From: Nitrosopumilus sp.
GTDB lineage: Archaea > Thermoproteota > Nitrososphaeria > Nitrososphaerales > Nitrosopumilaceae
Direction of reading: 5' to 3'
DNA: 64,000 nucleotides
Assembly: GCA_965218695.1 (NCBI GenBank)
Contig: OZ244651.1
Coordinates: forward strand, 608,001-672,000
Within the stretch, counting starts at the first letter, position 1, and each line of letters opens with the position of its first letter. Positions 16,518 through 38,052 of this stretch are shown here, piece after piece. Made by a program: the position numbers and the translations under genes. Under the pieces are notes generated by a model that searched no databases, had not been told where the DNA came from, and saw nothing but the letters and a program-made list of their open reading frames with translations.

Positions 16518-19500
16518 ATGCCAGAGATTAGTCGGTTCAAAAAGCGAAGCGGCACGGTCGTGGATTTTGACTCTGACAAGATAAAGAACGTCATACAGCG
16601 GGCGCTGTCGGCAGACGGCGGCGACGAGTCTTTGGCAGAATCGCTTACCGCCCAGGTGGTAGAACGGCTCGGCAAGGAGGGACAGGAGATGCAGTCCTCC
16701 GAGCACGTCCAGGACTTGGTCGAACTGGTGCTTATCGACAACGGCCACAGCAGCGTCGCAAAGTCGCTCATCATTCACCGCCACGAGAACCGCAAACTCA
16801 AGGACGAGAAGAAGGCGCTGCTGAACGTAAAGGTGCTGGATCCGGTGGCCAAGAAATTCGGGATCAACAGCCTGCGCGTGCTGGCCTCGCGCTGCCTGGC
16901 AAAGAACCCGGACGGCGAGATTATCGAGACGCCCACGCAGTGCCTTGAAAGGGTGGCAGTCGGAGTCGGCCTGGCCGGCATACTGTACGGACGCGAAGTG
17001 TTTGACCGCGACGGCGGGCACGCGCAGGACAGGTCCGAGGCGATAGCATACCTGGAAAAACTCGACGCGTTTGACAACAAGTTCTACATTGGCAAATATT
17101 ACCTGAACAAGTGGCATTTTCGCTCCCTGATAAACCAGTACGTGCGGCTTTGCGACGCCGGCTGCATGAAGGCGTCGTTCAAGACCGTGCTTACCATGCT
17201 GGCCAAGAACCGGTTCGCGTGCCTGGAGACGACAATCCAGCACTATTATGCCATGATGGAGGCACAGGATTTCCTGCCCAATTCCCCGACGCTGATGAAC
17301 GCCGGGGGCCGGCTGGGCCAACTGTCAGCGTGCTTCGTGCTGGACATGGAAGACAATCTGGATGACATCATGAAGACTACCAGCCAGACGGCCGTAATAT
17401 TCCAGAGCGGGGGCGGGGTCGGAATCAACTATTCAAAAATAAGGCCGGAAGGCGAGATGGTCGCCTCGACATTCGGCGTCGCGTCCGGCCCGGTATCGTT
17501 CATGAATATCATCAACGAGGTGACTGAAGTAGTCAAGCAGGGTGGAAAGAGGCGCGGCGCCAACATGGGGATCATGGAGGTCTGGCACCCGGACATCGAG
17601 AAGTTCATCACCAAAAAGATGGAGCCCGGCGAGCTGGAGAACTTCAACGTCAGCGTCGGCGTGTGGGAGGACTTTTGGGATGCCCTGGAAAAGGGTGAGG
17701 AATACTACGTGTTGCACGACCCGCGGAACCAGAAGGTCGTCGGCAGGATAAACCTGCACCATTTGGTTGATGTCATAGCGCACTCCGCGTGGGAAAGCGG
17801 CGAGCCTGGCATGCTGTTCTTTGACCGCATCAACCAGTACAACGTGTTTGCCAAGGCGAGGAACGGGCCGCTGAGGGCTACAAACCCGTGCGTGACTGCA
17901 GACACGCTGGTATTCACGAAGTTCGGCCTGCAGAAGATTGGCGACATGTGGGACACGCAGGAGGACGTCATACCGGCCATAGATGGCAGGATGGGTGCCG
18001 AGCCATTCAGGTGCGGCTCAGCTGTCAAGGCAAGCGGCGTGAAACCAGTGTACAGGTTGGTAACCCGCGAAGGCTACGAGGTCAGGCTTACCGCGGATCA
18101 CAAGGTCATGACGGAACGGGGCTGGGTAAGGGCAATTGATCTTAAGGGGTCTGACCAGATATATCTGACGAACCGTCCTGGCGGGTTTGGCGATCAGGGG
18201 GATGCCAAACTCGGGAAGGTATTGGGCTGGCTTGTCGGGGACGGGACGCTTTACGGCAAGAGGGCAGTACTGCCGTTCTTTGGCGAAAAGCAGGAATTGG
18301 CAACAGAGTTTGCCGGCATGATGGAGGCGTGCGTGCCCGCGCCGGTCGGTACCAGAAAACACTATTCCATCGGGGCCTCAAAGATCAAGGACCGGGACGA
18401 GACGCGCGTGGGATCGATGAGGTTTTACAGGGTGGCTTCCGCTCATGGGTTGACGCCCGGGCACAAGCTCGTGGTGCCTGAGAGCGTGTTCCTCGGGACC
18501 AAGGCCATGCAGGCAGGATTCTTGAGTGCGCTGTTTACCGCCGACGGGCACGTGGAAGGCGGCAGACACCGTGGCACAGCTATTATACTCTCGTCAATCT
18601 CGCACGAATTGCTGTCCGGCGTGCAAAAACTGTTACTCAATTTTGGCATAGCCAGCAGGATATACAGGGACAGGTGGAACGAACGAGTCAAGATGATGCC
18701 GGATGGCAGGGGCGACAAAAAGGAATACAGGTGCAAGCCGTGCCACCAGATACAGATAAGCAAGGACAACGTACTCAGATTCAAATCCGAAATAGGTTTC
18801 ATGCTAAAATCAAAAAATAACAGAATTGAATTAAATTTGTCATGCAACAAGAACGGCCCCAAATCTGAACTCTTCCTGGCTAGGTTCAAGGAGATAGTTC
18901 CAGAAGGAAATGAGCAGGTGTTTGACATTACCGAGCCCAACACACATTCGTTTGCCGCAAACGGCATAATCGTATCAAATTGCGCCGAACAAAGCATGTA
19001 TCCCTATGAATCCTGCAACCTCGGCTCCATAAACCTGTCCAACATGACAAGGGACGGCAAGTTCGACTGGGAAAGATACGAGGCAGCGATACGCGTCTGC
19101 ACCAGGTTCCTGGATTCCATCATAGACGTCACGAACTATCCGATACCGGAGATTGAAAAGGCCAGCATAGAAAGCAGGCGCACCGGGCTGGGGGTAATGG
19201 GCGTGGCCGACCTGCTGTACAAGCTCGGCATACCGTACAACTCCAAGAAGGGATACGAACTGCAGGACAGGCTGGCCGAGGCGCTGTCATACTATTCCAT
19301 GGACGAGAGCGTCGCGCTTGCAAAAGAACGCGGCGAGTTCGCGCTGTGCCCAAAATCCGAATACCCTGACGGCAAGATCCCGATTGCCGGATACTATGAA
19401 AAGGCCGCAAGGCACGACTGGGACGGCCTCATCGAACGGATCAAGGAGCACGGCATACGAAACGTCCTCACCACCACGATAGCCCCCACAGGCTCGCTGG

Positions 19501-20210
19501 CCATGATAGCAGAATGCTCAAACGGCATGGAGCCGGTATTTGCCATATCGTATGAAAAGCGCGTCGCGGTGGGCAAGTTTGTATACACGAACAGCGTGGT
19601 GCGCCGGATCTTGGAGGAAGAGGGCATATACAGCGACGAGCTGGCGCAAAAGATATCCGACAGCGGCGGCTCGCTGCGCGGGATTGCCGAGATTCCGGCC
19701 AAGTACCGCAACCTGTTTGTCACGGCCATGGACATACACTGGGCGGACCACGTCATGGCGCAGGCGACGTGGCAGAACTGGATAGGAAACGCCATCAGCA
19801 AGACGATAAACATGCCGCACGACGCCTCCCCTGAGTCGGTAAAGTCGGCGTACCTGCTGGCCCACGAGCTTGGCGTGAAGGGGATTACCATTTACCGCGA
19901 CGGCTCCAGGCACGCGCAGGTGCTGCACAAGTCGGGCGGGGGGAAGGACTCGTGCACCGCACCGGTCATGCCGCCCAGCAAACACGTCATGGAATACGTG
20001 CAAAACGGCATCACCAACGCCTACGTGCGGAAGAACATGAGCGGCCTGGACGGCACGGTGCAGATAAGCGTGGAGCGGCCCCACAGGGAACCTACAGTCC
20101 AGGACAAGCAGGAACGCGACATCTGCCCTAACTGCAAGAGCCGCTTGACGTTTGCCGAAGGCTGCTCGATGTGCGTCGAGTGCGGGTACAGTGGCTGCTC
20201 GTCTGGATGA
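16518..20210 (+). CDS. nrdJ: Class II (adenosylcobalamin-dependent) ribonucleotide reductase with ATP cone, intein and C-terminal zinc ribbon
   Basis: ATP cone KKRSG..VDFDSDKI; PNSPTLMNAG, QLSACFV, RRGANMG, TNP|C-A-E-Q, TIAPTG, ISKTIN, GVKGITIYRDG, EGCSMCVECGYS. Confidence 0.95.
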   Translation: MPEISRFKKRSGTVVDFDSDKIKNVIQRALSADGGDESLAESLTAQVVERLGKEGQEMQSSEHVQDLVELVLIDNGHSSVAKSLIIHRHENRKLKDEKKALLNVKVLDPVAKKFGINSLRVLASRCLAKNPDGEIIETPTQCLERVAVGVGLAGILYGREVFDRDGGHAQDRSEAIAYLEKLDAFDNKFYIGKYYLNKWHFRSLINQYVRLCDAGCMKASFKTVLTMLAKNRFACLETTIQHYYAMMEAQDFLPNSPTLMNAGGRLGQLSACFVLDMEDNLDDIMKTTSQTAVIFQSGGGVGINYSKIRPEGEMVASTFGVASGPVSFMNIINEVTEVVKQGGKRRGANMGIMEVWHPDIEKFITKKMEPGELENFNVSVGVWEDFWDALEKGEEYYVLHDPRNQKVVGRINLHHLVDVIAHSAWESGEPGMLFFDRINQYNVFAKARNGPLRATNPCVTADTLVFTKFGLQKIGDMWDTQEDVIPAIDGRMGAEPFRCGSAVKASGVKPVYRLVTREGYEVRLTADHKVMTERGWVRAIDLKGSDQIYLTNRPGGFGDQGDAKLGKVLGWLVGDGTLYGKRAVLPFFGEKQELATEFAGMMEACVPAPVGTRKHYSIGASKIKDRDETRVGSMRFYRVASAHGLTPGHKLVVPESVFLGTKAMQAGFLSALFTADGHVEGGRHRGTAIILSSISHELLSGVQKLLLNFGIASRIYRDRWNERVKMMPDGRGDKKEYRCKPCHQIQISKDNVLRFKSEIGFMLKSKNNRIELNLSCNKNGPKSELFLARFKEIVPEGNEQVFDITEPNTHSFAANGIIVSNCAEQSMYPYESCNLGSINLSNMTRDGKFDWERYEAAIRVCTRFLDSIIDVTNYPIPEIEKASIESRRTGLGVMGVADLLYKLGIPYNSKKGYELQDRLAEALSYYSMDESVALAKERGEFALCPKSEYPDGKIPIAGYYEKAARHDWDGLIERIKEHGIRNVLTTTIAPTGSLAMIAECSNGMEPVFAISYEKRVAVGKFVYTNSVVRRILEEEGIYSDELAQKISDSGGSLRGIAEIPAKYRNLFVTAMDIHWADHVMAQATWQNWIGNAISKTINMPHDASPESVKSAYLLAHELGVKGITIYRDGSRHAQVLHKSGGGKDSCTAPVMPPSKHVMEYVQNGITNAYVRKNMSGLDGTVQISVERPHREPTVQDKQERDICPNCKSRLTFAEGCSMCVECGYSGCSSG
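17889..18980 (+). mobile_element. Intein with LAGLIDADG homing endonuclease in RNR (364 aa)
   Basis: Starts CVTADT, block B LTADH, LGWLVGDG and FLSALFTADG, ends NGIIVSN before the +1 Cys of NP|CAE. Confidence 0.92.
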
Positions 20211-23863: not shown

Positions 23864-24094
23864 ATGGTAAATTGTGCTATATGCAATAATGCTGTTCAAG
23901 GACGGGACTGGCTGATGTGCAACGATTGCGCTCTCTCGAACAATGTCTGCGTCCTGTGCAAGAACACTATACAGTGGCGCGACGGGCTAGTATGCGACAA
24001 CTGCGCGCGTTCGAAGAACGTCTGTAGTAATTGCGGGAATCATTGGGACGGGGCAAATATTACTGGTAGCCTGGTGTGCGACGACTGCGACTGA
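23864..24094 (+). CDS. 76-aa protein of three tandem double-CxxC repeats
   Basis: CAIC..CNDC / CVLC..CDNC / CSNC..CDDC; CCC-TTTATA 27 nt upstream. Confidence 0.8.
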   Translation: MVNCAICNNAVQGRDWLMCNDCALSNNVCVLCKNTIQWRDGLVCDNCARSKNVCSNCGNHWDGANITGSLVCDDCD

Positions 24095-24407: not shown

Positions 24408-25121
24408 ATGGTAGGTAAACGCATCCTCATAATACCAGACATACACAACGTCTGGCACGTAGCTGAAAAAATAATCAGAAAAGAAAAACCAGACAGGACT
24501 GTATTCCTTGGAGACTATTTTGACGACTTTGGCGATGACTGGCGCGTGGCAAAGAACACCGCAAAATGGCTCGCAGAATCCTTAAGGGATGAAACCAGGA
24601 CGCATCTGATTGGAAACCACGATCTCGGCTACATGGCAAAAAATCCCTATCTGAGATGTTCAGGATACGACGGGGAGAAACACATCGAGATACAAAAAGT
24701 CGGCATTGACTGGAACCTGTTGCAGATGTATTGTTGGGTGGACGGCTGGTTGTGCACGCACGCGGGGCTATCTGACAGTTTTCTGTCGCTGATCAGGAAG
24801 AATCCTGATGATTCCGTGAAAAAGGTATTGGGGTATTCGTGGAACGGTCTTGGCAAAACGTTGACGGACGTCGGATACGACCATCCGTTCTTTCATGTAG
24901 GATACACGCGCAGAGGCGACTTTCCGGTCGGAGGGCCATTGTGGTGCGACTATGATGAATTTGTTGACGTACCTGGAGTGAGACAGATATTCGGACACAC
25001 TAGGAGGCCTTTTGTCAGGCATCATGAAATGGGCAGTGCGGAGCATTATTGCATTGACACGGGACTTGCGCACTATGCCATTGTGGACGGCGGCACCATC
25101 AGCATACTGACTAGGCCTTGA
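24408..25121 (+). CDS. Calcineurin-like metallophosphoesterase
   Basis: DIH, GDYFD, GNHD, THAG, FGHT, IDTG motifs. Confidence 0.88.
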   Translation: MVGKRILIIPDIHNVWHVAEKIIRKEKPDRTVFLGDYFDDFGDDWRVAKNTAKWLAESLRDETRTHLIGNHDLGYMAKNPYLRCSGYDGEKHIEIQKVGIDWNLLQMYCWVDGWLCTHAGLSDSFLSLIRKNPDDSVKKVLGYSWNGLGKTLTDVGYDHPFFHVGYTRRGDFPVGGPLWCDYDEFVDVPGVRQIFGHTRRPFVRHHEMGSAEHYCIDTGLAHYAIVDGGTISILTRP

Positions 25122-25195
25122 ATGCCGCCGACATTACCAGAAACGGATTTGAATACGAATGAAAATATTTTATGCTGTGCCTGCTACACGATAGC

Positions 25196-25306
25196 ATGAG
25201 ATGTATATGTAGTGCCAAACAAGGCGGCGGCTTGGAACCCACCCCGGTAATCGTTTCCGGTGAGATGAGTTGTAAAGCATGTGGCGTCGTGTTGACACCA
25301 ACCTAA
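25196..25306 (+). CDS. 36-aa stand-alone TFIIB-type zinc ribbon
   Basis: MRCICSAKQGGGLEPTPVIVSGEMSCKACGVVLTPT matches the TFB ribbon pattern GE.xCxxCG.V[LI]; GAAAATA-TTTTAT 28 nt upstream. Confidence 0.65.
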   Translation: MRCICSAKQGGGLEPTPVIVSGEMSCKACGVVLTPT

Positions 25307-25393
25307 ACCAAATCATGGTCTTGTCAGGCAGGGCACATTTTTCAAATGCGGTCACGAATTCTGTCCTTATACGGCTCTGTATCATGCAAAACA

Positions 25394-25936
25394 ATGTCCG
25401 AGACGACTGAACAATATATCACGCCGGCCGGCTTGAAGGGCAAGCGCGGCTGGACGGACCAGATGATACGCAAACTGTTAGGTGGGCCAGACAAGGTCGC
25501 GCCCAACCCGCACTACAGGACGGCCGCTCCGATGAGACTGTATCTAGTCGGACGCGTGGAGCAGGCAGAGAAATCAGGGTTGTTTGTAAGGCACGAGCCA
25601 GATCCAAGGAGGCAGAAGGCGGCCGCAAAGGCAGTACAGACCAAGATGCGCAACCTCATGAGGTGGGCCAAATACGTCAGGATCAAGTACGATTTTCCCG
25701 AGTCCGGCAAACTCCGCGGCGACGACAGGCAGAAGGTCAACTACCTGAGGCACGAGTGCACCGCGTACGACGACACGCTGGCCTCCATGTACGGCGTGAC
25801 CGGCCGGCGCGTGGCGTATCCTGTAATCAAGGGCCGCATGCTGGAAAAGATTGCCGGGGAGTTTCCCGAACTGGCAGGCGAGGCGCGCTTGCAGTCTGCA
25901 GGACATCTGGCCGGCTTATATGAAATGCCGGCCTGA
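25394..25936 (+). CDS. Conserved-looking hypothetical protein (RGWT...NPHY...LY and NYLRH..T.YD motifs)
   Basis: 180-aa ORF; C-terminal motif reminiscent of DUF2293; CC-TTATAC 27 nt upstream. Confidence 0.7.
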   Translation: MSETTEQYITPAGLKGKRGWTDQMIRKLLGGPDKVAPNPHYRTAAPMRLYLVGRVEQAEKSGLFVRHEPDPRRQKAAAKAVQTKMRNLMRWAKYVRIKYDFPESGKLRGDDRQKVNYLRHECTAYDDTLASMYGVTGRRVAYPVIKGRMLEKIAGEFPELAGEARLQSAGHLAGLYEMPA

Positions 25937-25965: not shown

Positions 25966-28900
25966 ATGACCGGGCCGCTCATGCTGGTCTCGGCGTCGTA
26001 CGACAGCGCCGACAAGCGCGTCGTGCTCAAGTTCTATGATCCCGCATCGCACAAGATTGTTCTCTGGAAGGACAACACCGGGCACAGACCGTATTGCTAT
26101 TCCAAGCTGTCCGCAGACGAACTGCGCGAAATCAGGAGCATGGACCGCGTGACCGGCATAAGCCGCGTGGTGCTGCATGACCTGGCAAAGGACAAACCCG
26201 TGGGCATGTCAAAGATAACGGCCGCGGATCCGTTTGCCATCATCGGGACGTACGACCAGCCCGGCGTGAAAAACAAGATAGAGGCGTGGGAGGCCGACAT
26301 CCGTTACCACGAGTCGTACCTGTACGACAGGAACCTCATCGTCGGCCGGTATTACAGGATAGAGGACGGGTGCGTCGTGCCGCACTCCATGGAGATATCC
26401 GGCGACGTGCAATCTGCGCTGAAGACGCTGCTGTGGGACAAAATGGACGACGGCAGCGTGGTGGATGCAGACGAGTTCAGGGAGTTCGTCACGTCGTGGG
26501 CCGACCTGCTGAACCAGCCCATCCCGGACATCAGGAGGCTGGCAGTCGACATAGAGGTGGAGTCAGAAGGCGGCAGGATTCCGGATCCCATTATAGCAGA
26601 CAAGAAGATCACCGCCGTCGGGCTCAAGGGAACCGGGCTTGACCGCGTGTTCGTTCTCAGGACGGAAGGCGTGCCGGAGGGCGAAGACGGCCTTGCAGGT
26701 AACGTCGGGGTGGCGTTTTACGACAGCGAAAAAGACATGATACGCGACGCGCTCAGGGTAATGGAATCGTTCCCGTTCGTGCTGACGTACAACGGCGACG
26801 AGTTTGACATGCCGTTTTTGTACAACCGGGCCAAGAGGCTCGGCATCGACGACAAGCAAAACCCGCTGTACATGATGAGGAACTCGGCCACGCTGAAAAA
26901 AGGGGTGCACCTGGACCTGTACCGGGTCATGTCCAACCGCTCGTTTCAGGTGTACGCGTTCAGCCAGGCGTACTCGGACTTTTCGCTTAACAGCGTGTCC
27001 AAGGCGCTTTTGGGCAAGGAGAAAATAGATTACGGGCTGAATTTCGACCAGATGTCACTCTGCCAGACCGCGAACTATTGCTACAACGACTCGCTGCTCA
27101 CGTACGAGCTTACCAGTTTCAACGGCGACATACTGATGAACCTGCTGGTAATCATATCCAGGATCGGCCGCATGCCGATTGACGGCATAGCCCGGATGGG
27201 GGTGTCGCAGTGGATCAAGAGCCTGCTGTATTACGAGCACCGGGTGCGCGGCTGCCTCATACCGAACCGGAAGGACCTGGACGCGCGCTCGCAGGGCGTG
27301 ATATCCGATGCCGTGATCAAGGACAAGAAGTACAAGGGCGGCCTGGTCGTGCAGCCCAAGGAAGGGGTGCATTTCGACGTCGTGGTGATGGACTTTGCCA
27401 GCCTGTATCCGAGCATAATCAAGGTAAGGAACCTGTCGTACGAGACCGTCAGGTGCCCGCACCCGGAGTGCCGCGCCAACGCCATACCGCTGACCAACCA
27501 CTGGGCATGCAAGAAGAGGAACGGCCTGACTGCCATGATAATCGGCTCGCTGCGCGACCTGAGGGTGAACTACTACAAGAGCCTGTCAAGGAACGAGTCG
27601 TTCACCGAAAAGCAGCGGGACCAGTATACCGTGGTGACGCAGGCACTCAAGGTCATACTGAATGCCAGTTACGGCGTGATGGGCGCCGACATATTCCCGC
27701 TGTATTTCCTGCCTGCGGCCGAGGCCACTACTGCCATAGGAAGGCATACCATCCAGGGCAGCATCGAGATTTGCAAGGCACAGGGAGTCGACGTGCTGTA
27801 TGGGGATAGTACGCCCGGGGACACGCCGGTAACATGCGAAAGAAACGGCATTAGGCAAATCATACCGATACGATCTCTGGCACCCAGCACGGTAACACAC
27901 GGCAGGCAGTCACACGCAGCGCTAAAGGTGCTGTCTGATACGGGGTTTGTTGATGTGGCGTATTCATACGTGCACACCGTGAAAAAAACAGGATACAGAA
28001 TAGGGACGAGAAAATCATACGTCGAGGTTACCGATGATCACAGCTTGATAATTGACGGGAAAGAGACGAAACCCAGCCAACTACGAATTGGGGACACAAT
28101 TGACATTTTACCGAACAACATTCGGGTGTTTGACAATGACCGCGTGCTATCAGACGACATGGCATGGCTGTTCGGGTTCTACATATCTGATGGCACGCTT
28201 GTTTGCGAGCGGGGGACCAATATATGGAGAATAGTGAAAAACGATAAGACCAAACTGGAGAAGGCGCAAAAAATAATAGCCAAACACCTAGGGTTCAAAA
28301 CCAAGGTATCACTCTGTCCATCGAGGGACAAACTGCATATGATAACATCTATGGACAAGTCCGTATCTACCATCGCCAAATATTTTGCATACCATTGTTA
28401 TTCCGGCAAGACCAAAATAATACCCGGGTGCATTCTGAATGGCACGAACCGAGTCAAGAACGCGTTTTTGCAGGGGGTGATAGACGGCGACGGACACGTG
28501 GACAAGAAAGACAAGTCAATCACGTTTGGACAAATACACAAGTCCGTGCTGGCAGGATACATCTCAATCATCACTGATTTGGGGCATGATTACTCCTTGA
28601 AGTTCAGGCGCGACAAGCCGAATTTCATATCCGTCCGGATAATCAGGAACAAGCATGACGTCAGGATCAGGCGCGCCAACGCCATAACACTTCTGGAAAA
28701 ATTCATCATAGACGAACCGGTGTATGATTTCTCTACTGCCAATGAGCATTTCCGAGGCGGCCTTGGCAACATTCTACTACACAACACCGACAGCGTCTTT
28801 TTACTGTCTCCGGATGACACACAGGTAAAATCCATAATATCGCAGGCCAAGGCAAAGTTCAAGGTTGATTTGGAGGCCGACAAGGAATACCGCTACTGCG

Positions 28901-29454
28901 TGTTCAGCAACCGCAAGAAGAACTATTTCGGCGTGACGAGGTCAGGAAAGCTGGACGTCAAGGGCCTGACTGGCAAAAAGTCTCACACCCCGCCTTTCAT
29001 CAAACAGGCGTTCAAGGAAATACTCGGCATACTGTCCGGGATCCACACGCCCGACGACTTTGAGGAGGCAAAGAAGAAGATATCGACAAGGATCGCCGAC
29101 TACGGCGGCCGCGTGGTGGCGCGGGAGATACCGCTGCAGGACCTGGCGTTTACTGTCCGGCTGAGCAAGCCGCCTGCCGAATACACCAAGACAATCCCCC
29201 AGCACATCAAGGCCGCGAAACAACTTGACAATGCCGACATGGTGAGGAGCGGCGACCGCATATCGTTTGTCAAGGTCATAGGCAAGATCGGCGTGCGGCC
29301 TGTCGAGAAGGCCAGGCGCGACGAGATCGACACCAGGAAATACATGGCGTTCATGGAGTCCACGCTGGAGCAGATCACGTCGTCGATGGGGCTGGATTTT
29401 GACACCATGCTGCAGAAGCCGAAACAATCAGGCATGGACGAATTTTTCTGGTAA
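25966..29454 (+). CDS. polB: Family B DNA polymerase (PolB1-like) with intein
   Basis: ExoI DIE, ExoII YNGDEFD, ExoIII YCYND, DFASLYPS, KVILNASYG, YGD|TDS, C-terminal PIP box QSGMDEFF. Confidence 0.95.
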   Translation: MTGPLMLVSASYDSADKRVVLKFYDPASHKIVLWKDNTGHRPYCYSKLSADELREIRSMDRVTGISRVVLHDLAKDKPVGMSKITAADPFAIIGTYDQPGVKNKIEAWEADIRYHESYLYDRNLIVGRYYRIEDGCVVPHSMEISGDVQSALKTLLWDKMDDGSVVDADEFREFVTSWADLLNQPIPDIRRLAVDIEVESEGGRIPDPIIADKKITAVGLKGTGLDRVFVLRTEGVPEGEDGLAGNVGVAFYDSEKDMIRDALRVMESFPFVLTYNGDEFDMPFLYNRAKRLGIDDKQNPLYMMRNSATLKKGVHLDLYRVMSNRSFQVYAFSQAYSDFSLNSVSKALLGKEKIDYGLNFDQMSLCQTANYCYNDSLLTYELTSFNGDILMNLLVIISRIGRMPIDGIARMGVSQWIKSLLYYEHRVRGCLIPNRKDLDARSQGVISDAVIKDKKYKGGLVVQPKEGVHFDVVVMDFASLYPSIIKVRNLSYETVRCPHPECRANAIPLTNHWACKKRNGLTAMIIGSLRDLRVNYYKSLSRNESFTEKQRDQYTVVTQALKVILNASYGVMGADIFPLYFLPAAEATTAIGRHTIQGSIEICKAQGVDVLYGDSTPGDTPVTCERNGIRQIIPIRSLAPSTVTHGRQSHAALKVLSDTGFVDVAYSYVHTVKKTGYRIGTRKSYVEVTDDHSLIIDGKETKPSQLRIGDTIDILPNNIRVFDNDRVLSDDMAWLFGFYISDGTLVCERGTNIWRIVKNDKTKLEKAQKIIAKHLGFKTKVSLCPSRDKLHMITSMDKSVSTIAKYFAYHCYSGKTKIIPGCILNGTNRVKNAFLQGVIDGDGHVDKKDKSITFGQIHKSVLAGYISIITDLGHDYSLKFRRDKPNFISVRIIRNKHDVRIRRANAITLLEKFIIDEPVYDFSTANEHFRGGLGNILLHNTDSVFLLSPDDTQVKSIISQAKAKFKVDLEADKEYRYCVFSNRKKNYFGVTRSGKLDVKGLTGKKSHTPPFIKQAFKEILGILSGIHTPDDFEEAKKKISTRIADYGGRVVAREIPLQDLAFTVRLSKPPAEYTKTIPQHIKAAKQLDNADMVRSGDRISFVKVIGKIGVRPVEKARRDEIDTRKYMAFMESTLEQITSSMGLDFDTMLQKPKQSGMDEFFW
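27808..28785 (+). mobile_element. Intein with LAGLIDADG homing endonuclease in PolB (326 aa)
   Basis: Splits YGD|TDS; starts STPGDT, block B VTDDH, FGFYISDG and FLQGVIDGDG, ends LLHN; more AT-rich than the extein. Confidence 0.92.
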
Positions 29455-29816: not shown

Positions 29817-29891
29817 AGCGGGGTGGGGAAGTCAGGTCATCCCGGGGGGCCCATAACCCCCAGGTCGGCGGTTCGAATCCGTCTCCCGCTA
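29817..29891 (+). tRNA. tRNA-Met(CAT), initiator type
   Basis: Full cloverleaf: AGCGGGG/TCCCGCT with A1:U72, D stem GGGA/TCCC, anticodon stem GGGGG/CCCCC, loop CCCATAA, T loop TTCGAAT; no encoded CCA. Confidence 0.93.
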
Positions 29892-30332
29892 CTCCCACAT
29901 TATGTCAGGCTCTGGCCATTCTTCAACCACGCTGGGCATCCTTTTCATCTCTTTATCCAGGTAATCAAACCAAGACACCTTCAGCTCCTTGAGATCCGTG
30001 ATATCTATCACGATGAATGGTATCTTGGCAAGTTTGTAATCGGCGTTCCGCTTGGCCGTCCTTTTCGCGCCAGGCTTGGTGTGGTGGATCGAGCCGTCCA
30101 GCTCTATGACGTACTTGAGGCTGCCGTGCATGTCACGCACCATTATGTCCGGATGGTGCTGCACCGTGCCTTTCAGGTCTGGTTTTGACAGATCCTTGTA
30201 CACGCCGGTTACGGAATAGTCCCACCTTGAGATCAGGATGAAATGCTCCTTGAGTATCTGCTCGCCTGGTATGTTGTGGACGCCTTTGATGTAGGATATC
30301 AGTGAATGCAGCTGCGCGTCGTCTGTCTCCAT
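29889..30332 (-). CDS. DUF559/Vsr-like PD-(D/E)xK endonuclease
   Basis: HPDIMV...YVIELDGSIHH...RNADY..AKIPFIVI. Confidence 0.7.
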   Translation of the reverse strand: METDDAQLHSLISYIKGVHNIPGEQILKEHFILISRWDYSVTGVYKDLSKPDLKGTVQHHPDIMVRDMHGSLKYVIELDGSIHHTKPGAKRTAKRNADYKLAKIPFIVIDITDLKELKVSWFDYLDKEMKRMPSVVEEWPEPDIMWE

Positions 30333-31956: not shown

Positions 31957-32133
31957 ATGGGGGAAATCGGATGTGTTAGATGCGGCGGGCCAATCGGCAC
32001 CAATACCGGCGTCTGGCACGTCTGCAAGGAGTGCTATACGGCCGGATGGTGCTATCGTTGTGGACGGCACAAGATGACTTTGAAGGGTGAATGGTGCAAG
32101 AACTGCAAGAAGCAGGTTTACGGCCGGGTCTAA
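31957..32133 (+). CDS. 58-aa GWC-family double zinc finger
   Basis: CVRC-x13-CKECYTAGWCYRCG-x10-CKNC; CC-TTATAC upstream. Confidence 0.8.
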   Translation: MGEIGCVRCGGPIGTNTGVWHVCKECYTAGWCYRCGRHKMTLKGEWCKNCKKQVYGRV

Positions 32134-36074: not shown

Positions 36075-38052
36075 ATGAGTGAATGCGCCTGCCACACCCC
36101 GACGCCGGTGTTGGACGAGGTAGCAGGAGAAACCGTCTGTTCCAAATGCGCGCGCGTGCTGGATGATTCAATGGAACAACCATGCAAGAACCAGGGCCAG
36201 AACCACATGGTGCTTGGAAACCGCGTGTCATCCACGAAAATACAGGGAAACGCCAAGATGCGGCGCGCCAGCAGATGTCCAACAGGGTCGACCAAAAAGG
36301 AATGGACACGAGACATAATCCGTAATTAGAAATTGTACATATTTTCCTATACTGTGTAGGTTTTTTGACTCCTATCAGGTTGCTTCCCGGACTAGGAGAA
36401 CCCTGAGGTTGGCAAATCCGCAGACGATGTCATTGACGGTGTCGTATTTTTTCAGGCGGTTTCGGTAGACACCGCTCATTATGCGAAACCGTTTGACCCT
36501 GCGGATGGCGTGCTCCACATACACCCGTGCCTTTGAGTGCTTTTTGTTGAATTCCTTCTGCTCGGGGGACAATTCTGCGCCTTTTTGCTTCTTGTACGGC
36601 ACTACTGCATCCCGGTCAGGAAATTCTTTGTTGATCCCCTGGTATCCGTTGTCCAGGATCTCTCTGACTTTGATCCTTTCCTTGTCCTTGCTCCCGTCCT
36701 TGCGTGGAAGGTTGTCAGGGAATGTCGGGTGTTTCTTTTTGAATACTGCAAAGTCGTGGATCCTGCCCGGGGAATGCCGGGTCTTGTGAATGATGAGGCC
36801 ATCTGTGGCCGACGTGTACTGGATCTTGGACGTGTGCCTGTGTGCCTTGCCCGAGTAGTGGGACCGTTCCATGTCCTTGCGTCCGGGACGTTGTATCTGC
36901 TGCTCTGAGGCATCAATCAGGGCAGTCAGGCCCGGAATGATCTCCTCAAGATCGTCAAGCGTCTTGGTGGCCTTGATGTTGGCGTAGATCTTTGACGGAA
37001 GCGGAACGCACTGCCGGATCGACGGCTCCAGTGCCCCCATGCTGCGGGACACGCTAGCCTGGCCCATCTGAAACACCATGGCAAGAAGATCCTGCGTAGC
37101 GTATGTCCTGTAATAAAACAGGACCAGAAGAAACCTGTTTTTCAGATCCAGTTTCCACCTGCGTCCGGCACCAATGCCGCGCACCCTGCTTCTTTTGGCG
37201 AGTCGCTTTTGCTCTGCCTTGGGGTATTTTTTTGCCAGCCGCCCTGCCACCAAATTAAATTCGGAGACTGTCAGTCCAGTGCACCGGATGAACAGTTTGG
37301 GCTTTTTTGCTAATTTGTCGTATAATGACATGCTTTGACATTGGCAATCAGAATAAAACACGGCTGACGTATAGTTTTGATCATCGGGCAAGTTCGAATT
37401 GACATGCAATTCCATGCAGTCAGCCAGATTTGTCCTGCAATGCGTCCAATCTCGTGATTATGCCCAATTACGGATGATGTCTCCGGACTACATGATAAAA
37501 TCATGCTGCAACAAACTCTGGATTCCACAGACGGTAGCGGACCGCGCCATGATCATATTTGACAAGTTCAGGAAGAGTCTTGGCGGCGGAAACCCGGCCA
37601 ACCATACAGCGGCTGTCGTATACATGGCGTGTAGGGAGCGCGGCGTGGCGCGCAGCATGAAGGAGATATTTTCGGCACTTGACGCAGATTCCAAGAAGGC
37701 CCGCCGCGCGTATTACAAGCTGCACAAATCAATGGATGCTGTCTTGCCGGTCCCAGATGCGGCCGGTTTTGCCACGCGTTTGGCATCAGACCTCAACTTA
37801 CCAGAAAAGACGGCGCGCAGGGCGTTAAAGATACTGGAACGGTTGAACGATGCGGGCTTGACGACCGGACACGGTCCAACCATACTGGCCGCGTACGCCA
37901 CGTATGCCGCATTGAACCGGACAGAGGGCGTCACGCAAGGAATGATAGTCAAGGCGGCCGGGATATCCGAAGCTGTGCTGCGTGAGCTGGGCGTGGCAGT
38001 CAGGGCCGATGAGTTTGCAGTCAGGATGAACGCGACAGGTTCAGTCAGGTGA
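36075..38052 (+). pseudogene. tfb: Divergent transcription initiation factor TFB (TFIIB), interrupted by an IS5-family element
   Basis: Zinc ribbon CAC...GETVCSKCARVL; cyclin repeats AAVVYMACR..GVARSMKEI and TQGMIVKAAGISEAVLR; removing 36310-37483 restores a 267-aa frame. Confidence 0.88.
36310..37483 (-). mobile_element. IS5-family (DDE_Tnp_4, ISL2-like) insertion sequence
   Basis: TIRs GAGACAT(A/C)ATCCGTAATT; transposase with IDASEQ.I.RP, YSGK..H, DNGYQG, RVYVEHAIRRVK. Confidence 0.92.

Follow-up and report, generated by a model that had tools for sequence, protein, structure and literature searches.

A 36-codon reading frame with a TFB-type zinc ribbon in a decaying genomic island of Nitrosopumilus: a possible remnant of a mobile-element TFB-like gene

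The sequence window analysed here, a stretch of 64,000 nucleotides from a Nitrosopumilus genome of 2.63 Mb (C1:608001-672000), contains a 36-codon open reading frame (ORF) that encodes a zinc ribbon of the TFB type and ends almost directly after it. By sequence comparison, the likeness of this ribbon to TFB ribbons exceeds chance, and the ORF probably descends from the ribbon of a TFB-like gene carried by a mobile element. As to its present state, we give about an even chance to the reading that the ORF is a 5' stump of such a gene that is not under selection. The coordinates of the ORF and of the features discussed with it are collected in Table 1.

Table 1. Positions of the ORF, its neighbours and related features (window positions unless a locus is named)
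Feature	Position	Strand	Basis or remark
Calcineurin-like metallophosphoesterase gene, upstream of the ORF	24408..25121	+	Pfam Metallophos, E 5.9e-9
Promoter-like element: A-tract 25162-25165 (BRE-like), TATTTTAT 25166-25173	25161..25176	+	Host-promoter matrix
36-codon ORF plus TAA, zinc ribbon	25196..25306	+	Sequence read directly
Hairpin 25318-25334, then T5 25338-25342; possible terminator of a short transcript	25318..25342	+	Terminator scan
180-aa gene, probable start 25394, preceded at about 22 nt from the ATG by a TTATAC of its own	25394..25936	+	Not part of a TFB
Island-type short TFB ("private TFB"), broken	36075..38052	+	Intact relatives P0003-P0010, 256-267 aa
Ribbon-only ORF of Nitrosarchaeum, copy in L070	890-1099	+	Context in L179
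Ribbon-only ORF of Nitrosarchaeum, copy in L071	1183-980	-	Context in L179

The encoded peptide begins with MRCICS and finishes with LTPT. Its four ribbon ligands are arranged as C3-x-C5, 20 intervening residues and C26-x2-C29, which gives two knuckles and four zinc ligands at the separation expected of a ribbon (knuckles about 15-20 residues apart). The first knuckle has the CxC form seen in mobile-element TFBs, as opposed to the CxxC of canonical TFBs. Translation from the ATG at 25196 runs to the TAA at 25304-25306, which lies three codons past the ribbon, three residues past the VVL and seven residues past the last cysteine. The central observation of the original prediction, a stand-alone ORF that halts right after a TFB-type zinc ribbon, is borne out by these positions, and the peptide is present in the sequence as it was given there. 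The span that had been assigned to the gene, 25161..25306, is correct for the ORF part (25196-25306), whereas position 25161 belongs to a promoter-like element and is not the start of the ORF. An alternative in-frame ATG at 25172 would yield a 44-aa form; because this codon falls within the TATA-like box, the 36-aa form is the likelier product. The ORF occupies a 272-nt gap between the metallophosphoesterase gene and the 180-aa gene, and all three lie on the same strand, shortly before a gene for a family B DNA polymerase with an intein. The ORF is absent from the protein collection, which means that no gene had been called at this place.

The nearest match of the ORF in its own genome is a 239-aa protein encoded at C1:490k, 143 kb upstream on the same contig. 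The N-terminus of this protein reads RCIC, a 16-residue spacer and C-x2-CGVVL, and its gene adjoins an integrase-like gene. A BLASTP comparison of the two proteins gives 14 identities in 32 residues (pairwise E 4e-6). The 490k protein belongs to a TFB-like family with frames of about 230-350 aa and a patchy distribution, with members in 70 of 401 Nitrosopumilaceae genomes, a count that takes in the unpublished genome G580. The family can be aligned with the four canonical TFBs of the genome over the cyclin core (hhalign, 96.3%, E 1.7e-9), and the Pfam TFIIB repeat scores above its cut-off in one of ten members and at E < 0.01 in three of the ten. In the Nitrosarchaeum genome G362, a member of the family is followed by a 392-aa gene and then by a gene for a TraG/VirD4-like ATPase. 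Passages of Krupovic et al. (2019, PMC6563490) state that all thaumarchaeal integrative-conjugative elements (ICEs) carry TFIIB homologues. With an integrase-like neighbour in the Nitrosopumilus genome and a TraG/VirD4-like neighbour in G362, the family fits the ICE TFIIB homologues of those passages (PMC6563490).

The relationship of the ORF to this ICE-type family was assessed with an HMM built from 23 family ribbons, all taken from other genomes; the ORF and the genome's own member were left out, and one family frame (L165) was omitted because it has no second knuckle of the searched form. The HMM was then applied to every stop-to-stop frame of the genome with 25 aa or more, 59,354 in all. 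The ORF came second of the 59,354 (E 0.0014, 19.7 bits), behind the 490k gene (E 1.4e-7) and above every canonical TFB, and TFBs occupied ranks 3, 4, 5, 7 and 8. In a profile comparison by hhalign, residues 2-34 of the ORF were placed on columns 3-29 of the family, in register at the N-terminus (92.2%, E 6e-7). C3, E23, C26, C29 and G30 are invariant across all 25 rows of the alignment, the ORF included, and the eight residues CKACGVVL of the ORF recur unchanged in two family members. The original prediction had aligned the ORF with the TFB of the surrounding island; the ribbon of the ICE-type gene at 490k is closer.

The ICE-type proteins have CxC or CxH as their first knuckle and E-x2-C-x2-CGVVL as their second, and the ORF keeps every invariant position. 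They differ from the ORF in continuing, over their 230-350 aa, into a cyclin-like core, which the ORF lacks. Many of their genes are followed by a ParB-like gene, whereas an unrelated gene follows the ORF. In addition, an insertion of 6-7 residues (around SAKQGGG) is unique to the ORF and absent from all 24 family ribbons. No conjugation genes were recognised among 23 island ORFs scanned against Pfam, and a 907-aa island ORF matched the TraG/VirD4-like protein of G362 by BLASTP with E 0.032.

Generic profiles and structural comparisons bear on a different explanation, namely that the ORF arose by chance, or encodes a small zinc-ribbon protein of another kind, and that its likeness to TFB reflects generic zinc-knuckle features. 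The HMM search that the original prediction had recommended left the ORF under the cut-off: the Pfam model Zn_Ribbon_TF (PF08271) scored 15.4 bits (E 0.014) over residues 21-33 only, below the gathering cut-off of 29 bits, and Trm112p scored nearly as well. When the same model was used for a six-frame scan of the genome, the ORF reached 14.0 bits (E 0.125) and came 14th of 26, behind the ribbons of S27e, L37ae and MetRS. The island-type TFBs share with the ORF the CxC knuckle, PTPV and GE-x2-C-x2-C-x-VL, but only 11 of 24 residues are identical. The alignment with the N-terminus of the island TFB (ORF 36075-36329), from which the original prediction had started, is real as a single pairwise comparison by BLASTP (11/24 identities, E 1e-4) but not significant genome-wide, as an HMM of seven island-type TFB N-termini placed the ORF at rank 13 of the 59,354 frames with E 2.4, the top eight all being TFBs. 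Against canonical TFBs, hhalign covered the second knuckle only (77.8%).

Searches beyond the genome gave a similar picture. The 36-aa sequence had no hits among PDB sequences by phmmer. AF2 modelled it with a pLDDT of 69.4 when given the sequence alone and of 67.7 when given the ribbon alignment of 25 rows. Foldseek against pdb with the ORF model returned no hits and then none at E <= 0.001 (best E 1.6, with TFIIB and Brf chains among the weak rows), and a wide structure search with VIA-align found nothing at Z >= 2. The language-model neighbours of the ORF in the protein atlas were generic Cys-rich clusters only (scores <= 0.90). PHROGs contained nothing for the ORF or for eight of the nine island proteins scanned alongside, and the phosphoesterase had two weak matches. 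The island also holds other small Cys-rich ORFs. A mixed ribbon profile (A1) matched the ribbon of P. furiosus TFB, 1pft, with E 8.8e-4; since this profile is dominated by true TFBs, the match is no test of the ORF.

The low scores with Pfam and the island-type HMM, the PDB and fold searches without significant matches, the generic language-model neighbours and the other Cys-rich ORFs speak for a chance or unrelated origin. Such an origin is opposed by the family HMM, which was built independently of the ORF and nonetheless ranked it above every canonical TFB among 59,354 frames, by the in-register profile alignment from residue 2 to residue 34, and by the string CKACGVVL shared with two family members. 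A Cys4 pattern like that of the ORF is also found in just 202 of 46,463 short frames (0.43%). The motif GE-x2-C-x2-C-x3-[LIV], which was picked after the alignment had been seen, occurs in 12 of the 59,354 frames, eight of them being TFBs. We regard a chance or unrelated origin as quite unlikely, and descent from a mobile-element ribbon as the probable one.

The remainder of a TFB gene is missing. The ORF has neither the B-reader/linker nor the two cyclin repeats of a TFB/TFIIB protein. At E <= 1, PF00382 matched nothing in the vicinity of the ORF; between 24900 and 26100, the full-length family HMM (232 positions) detected only the ribbon on either strand; and the 209 aa encoded downstream showed no likeness to either of the two TFB-like profiles (probability 0.1%). 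A decayed cyclin core downstream, named in the original prediction as the sign of a simple TFB pseudogene, was detected by none of these three comparisons. No repeat or IS end was found at the 3' junction of the ORF.

The 180-aa protein encoded downstream belongs to no Pfam or PHROG family. The TAA of the ribbon ORF is the single stop between the two genes, which share a frame with 29 open codons between them, and read-through would yield a protein of 246 aa, a length that matches the 230-260 aa of the short TFB-like family. The ribbon could accordingly be imagined as the N-terminal module of a fusion with the 180-aa domain, separated from it by a recent nonsense mutation to TAA or joined to it by read-through. 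We consider such a fusion very improbable, because the downstream 209 aa resemble neither TFB-like profile and because the homologues of the 180-aa protein in G002, G345 and G464 have N-termini without a ribbon. Between the ribbon ORF and the 180-aa gene there is a hairpin with a T5 tract as well as a separate TATA-like box, and a shared frame has a chance of about 1 in 3. The 180-aa gene was matched in G255 and G493 as well; the statement on the ribbon covers G002, G345 and G464. No small ORF precedes the copy of the 180-aa gene in G002. A search for this neighbour in the genome contig and viral contig collections found no match, and candidate synteny matches in G009 and G007 turned out to be phosphoesterase fragments.

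The island around the ORF is in decay. Its own short TFB, the "private TFB" that the original prediction had proposed as a partner of the ORF, is a pseudogene here. The ribbon and reader extend from 36075 to about 36272, where a 1-nt frameshift occurs, and the cyclin core follows at 37486-38052, with an IS of 1,174 bp (36310-37483, DDE_Tnp_4) inserted just before it. This IS has 18 other copies on contig C1 with 87-100% identity. As the island TFB is broken, a present-day two-part takeover switch made of the ORF and this TFB is unlikely. The mobile elements of the island comprise IS630-like elements (two copies, one broken), TnpB, IS66 and DDE_Tnp_4.

Damage of a comparable kind is seen in other island-type TFBs. 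A second copy in the same genome, at C1:553.8-554.6 kb, is frameshifted within its ribbon, after the CxC knuckle and before PTPV, and for both this copy and the one at 36075 the protein collection contains only a 192-aa ribbon-less product (P0002, P0005). In the sister genome G002, a different IS, whose transposase is of the integrase-core type, interrupts the island-type TFB (L040, C1:1082-1085 kb) after about 95 residues, and the 180-aa gene of that genome lies about 30 kb away. The Nitrosopumilus genome studied here has about ten TFB or TFB-like loci in all, if broken ones are counted along with the canonical, island-type and ICE-type loci; the scans for ribbons and cyclin domains also brought up a split TFB at C1:1983-1984 kb. 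In G648 and G564, short ribbon frames proved to be parts of full TFBs with a frameshift. One protein, P0012, seen on two contigs of a public assembly, is a 49-aa internal-deletion form in which a 30-aa ribbon is joined to the last ~19 residues of an island-type TFB. It indicates that ribbon-bearing mini-ORFs do arise from island-type TFBs by deletion. P0012 retains the last ~19 residues of its parent, however, and the ORF does not.

The region upstream of the ORF resembles a host promoter. GAAAA followed by TATTTTAT (25161-25173) ends 22 nt 5' of the ATG, which is the spacing expected of a leaderless mRNA. We compared the upstream region with a 16-nt host-promoter matrix learnt from 1,754 host genes; the best match lies at -35 and scores 6.25 bits. 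This score is reached by 28% of the 1,754 long genes compared with 5.9% of 8,910 small ATG ORFs, which corresponds to a likelihood ratio of about 4.7. In host genes, the upstream region is rich in A at -35..-32 and in T/A at -30..-24 and has no Shine-Dalgarno signal, giving the picture of leaderless transcripts in this host. The matrix score supports the host-like promoter that had been predicted. The accompanying claim that this promoter is unlike those of most island genes also holds, the ORF having a purine element before its TATA where the island shows an excess of a different form, CC+TATA. This form (CC directly 5' of a TATA-like box, about 20-23 nt from the ATG) is found at 7 of 117 ORFs in the island, taken as 13.5-55.5 kb, compared with 54 of 5,947 ORFs in the remainder of the contig, and it may be an element-specific BRE that is read by an element TFB. 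On the 3' side of the ORF, the terminator scan found two terminator-like sites in the region compared with 0.5 expected from shuffles. With a host-type promoter at the correct spacing and a T5 tract, the ORF resembles a tidy transcription unit.

Conservation of the 36-aa ORF was sought in several ways, and none of them brought up a homologue, so that there is no sign of selection on it. A word-index search with the 44-aa form found no homologue. A phmmer search over 1.84 billion representatives gave one match only, P0001, which we judged to be spurious, as it is a 544-aa tandem-repeat protein with seven weak stretches. When 401 genomes of the order were searched in six frames, the best match had an E of 0.018, and many weak matches lay within TFB frames of 300-320 aa. 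A ribbon profile applied to proteins of 22-77 aa recovered no homologue of the ORF, and its own genome contains no second copy. DNA contigs from four runs cover the ORF wholly (X3, X4) or partly (X5, X6) and have no variant in the covered parts, which makes them uninformative on selection. Full-text literature searches brought up no paper on ribbon-only TFB genes; the supplementary ICE annotation of PMC6563490 might include such small ORFs.

The lack of conservation, the broken partner and the decay of the surroundings lead us to place the chances of a non-selected stump at about half. The ancestral gene would have been a member of the short TFIIB-like family of thaumarchaeal ICEs, with the ORF representing its N-terminal ribbon module, and a deletion or rearrangement in the decaying island would have cut the gene three codons after the ribbon. 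The ancestor's promoter and start codon persist in such a stump, so it may still be expressed as a leaderless mRNA that is translated into a 36-aa zinc-binding peptide. For the same reason, a decoy or other working minigene cannot be told from a relic by promoter, start codon and ribbon, as all three would be kept in a stump.

Several observations speak against a stump. All four cysteines and every invariant position of the family are intact and there is no frameshift, whereas some of these should have disappeared from a stump that had been dead for long. Upstream lies a promoter-like element of host type at the right spacing (ratio ~4.7), and a T5 tract follows the ORF. The 3' side shows neither a junction repeat nor an IS end, and the insertion of 6-7 residues is left without explanation. 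Finally, a ribbon-only ORF of a similar kind is conserved in two genomes of another genus.

This second ribbon-only ORF, of about 57 aa, is conserved between the Nitrosarchaeum genomes G362 and G183 (genus g22). It has a cysteine 14 residues before the CxxC knuckle, its ribbon ends in CGVVL, and the stop follows about 11 residues later. All four substitutions in its ribbon are synonymous (4/4), which suggests that ribbon-only genes can be maintained. An ICE-type TFB-like gene is located about 10 kb away, and the TraG/VirD4-like ATPase is also nearby. Together with the Nitrosopumilus ORF, which lies 11 kb from the island TFB, this second ORF offers a hint of two independent cases. One could speculate that thaumarchaeal mobile elements make repeated use of ribbon-only TFB minigenes, whose ribbon would occupy the docking surface of the host RNA polymerase. 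A bare ribbon made from a host-type promoter would then shift initiation off the host TFBs or towards the TFB-like factor of the element. We rate such a general device as rather improbable.

TFB ribbons use the dock and clamp surface of RNA polymerase. The Nitrosopumilus ORF could be a working ribbon-only micro-protein at this surface, where it would either compete with host TFBs as a decoy, the role assigned to it in the original prediction, or act in trans with a TFB as an auxiliary in the manner of TFB3. This is unlikely in our view, although several features would agree with it: the ribbon is of the TFB type and complete in its ligands and family invariants, the promoter is host-type with the spacing of a leaderless mRNA, a T-tract follows, and the conserved G362/G183 ORF is found at about 10 kb from an ICE-type TFB-like gene. 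Regulatory truncated TFB paralogues are established as such. TFB3 of Sulfolobus is described in passages of PMC6101594 as a truncated TFB paralogue that activates DNA-damage genes and acts via its ribbon; PMC6101591 is a further reference for this paralogue. TFB3 and the ORF both have a four-Cys ribbon and no DNA-binding core, and the action of either would need RNA polymerase or other factors. TFB3 differs in being chromosomal and crenarchaeal and in having an essential coiled coil, and it is likened to the ORF by description and not by sequence. The same passages (PMC6101594) report that a 49-aa ribbon-only TFB3 did not activate the target genes in vivo in S. islandicus, the coiled coil being required as well. 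The ORF has the ribbon without the C-terminal coiled coil of the TFB3 type; at 36 aa in all, no residues are left for one.

Small proteins that act on factor-binding sites of archaeal RNA polymerase provide a further comparison. According to passages of PMC9501531, RIP/ORF145 of ATV and TFS4 are virus- or host-encoded proteins that occupy such sites and block initiation, RIP mimicking the TFB B-linker, and a viral factor on a TFB site of the polymerase is in this sense known. RIP and TFS4 resemble the proposed decoy in their kind of action but have other folds and other sites (DNA channel, NTP channel) than the dock. The archaeal RNA polymerase inhibitors described in those passages of PMC9501531 include no dock-site competitor.

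Against a working micro-protein stand the lack of a homologue, and hence of a selection signal, the pseudogene state of the proposed partner TFB and the inactivity of the 49-aa ribbon-only TFB3 in S. islandicus (in the same passages of PMC6101594). The loop insertion, absent from all 24 relatives, might disturb the fold, and the AF2 pLDDT is only 68-69. A co-fold of the ORF with residues 1-480 of Rpo1 and 3 Zn, run without controls, had a score of 0.01 and a mark of 0.34, which lends binding no support but by the terms of the method does not count against it.

If the ORF is a stump, as we consider about evenly probable, it amounts to a small annotation point on the decay of mobile-element TFB genes in Nitrosopumilaceae, and expression of such remnants would still be conceivable, since they retain the ribbon together with promoter and start codon. 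A working ribbon-only form would be smaller than any other known derivative of a general transcription factor; it would also be the first proposed RNA polymerase dock-site competitor in archaea and would provide a simple peptide tool to probe TFB recruitment in ammonia-oxidising archaea. These archaea have many TFB paralogues which, to our knowledge, are functionally unexplored.

Some further features of the island were noted. LAGLIDADG inteins are present in its ribonucleotide reductase (16518-20210) and in its family B DNA polymerase (25966-29454), and a tRNA-Met gene lies within the island directly after the polymerase gene (29817-29892). Two other small Cys-rich ORFs, at 23864-24094 (76 aa) and 31957-32133 (58 aa), contain several CxxC pairs each and are preceded by TATA-like boxes at the spacing of leaderless transcripts; neither of them is TFB-like.
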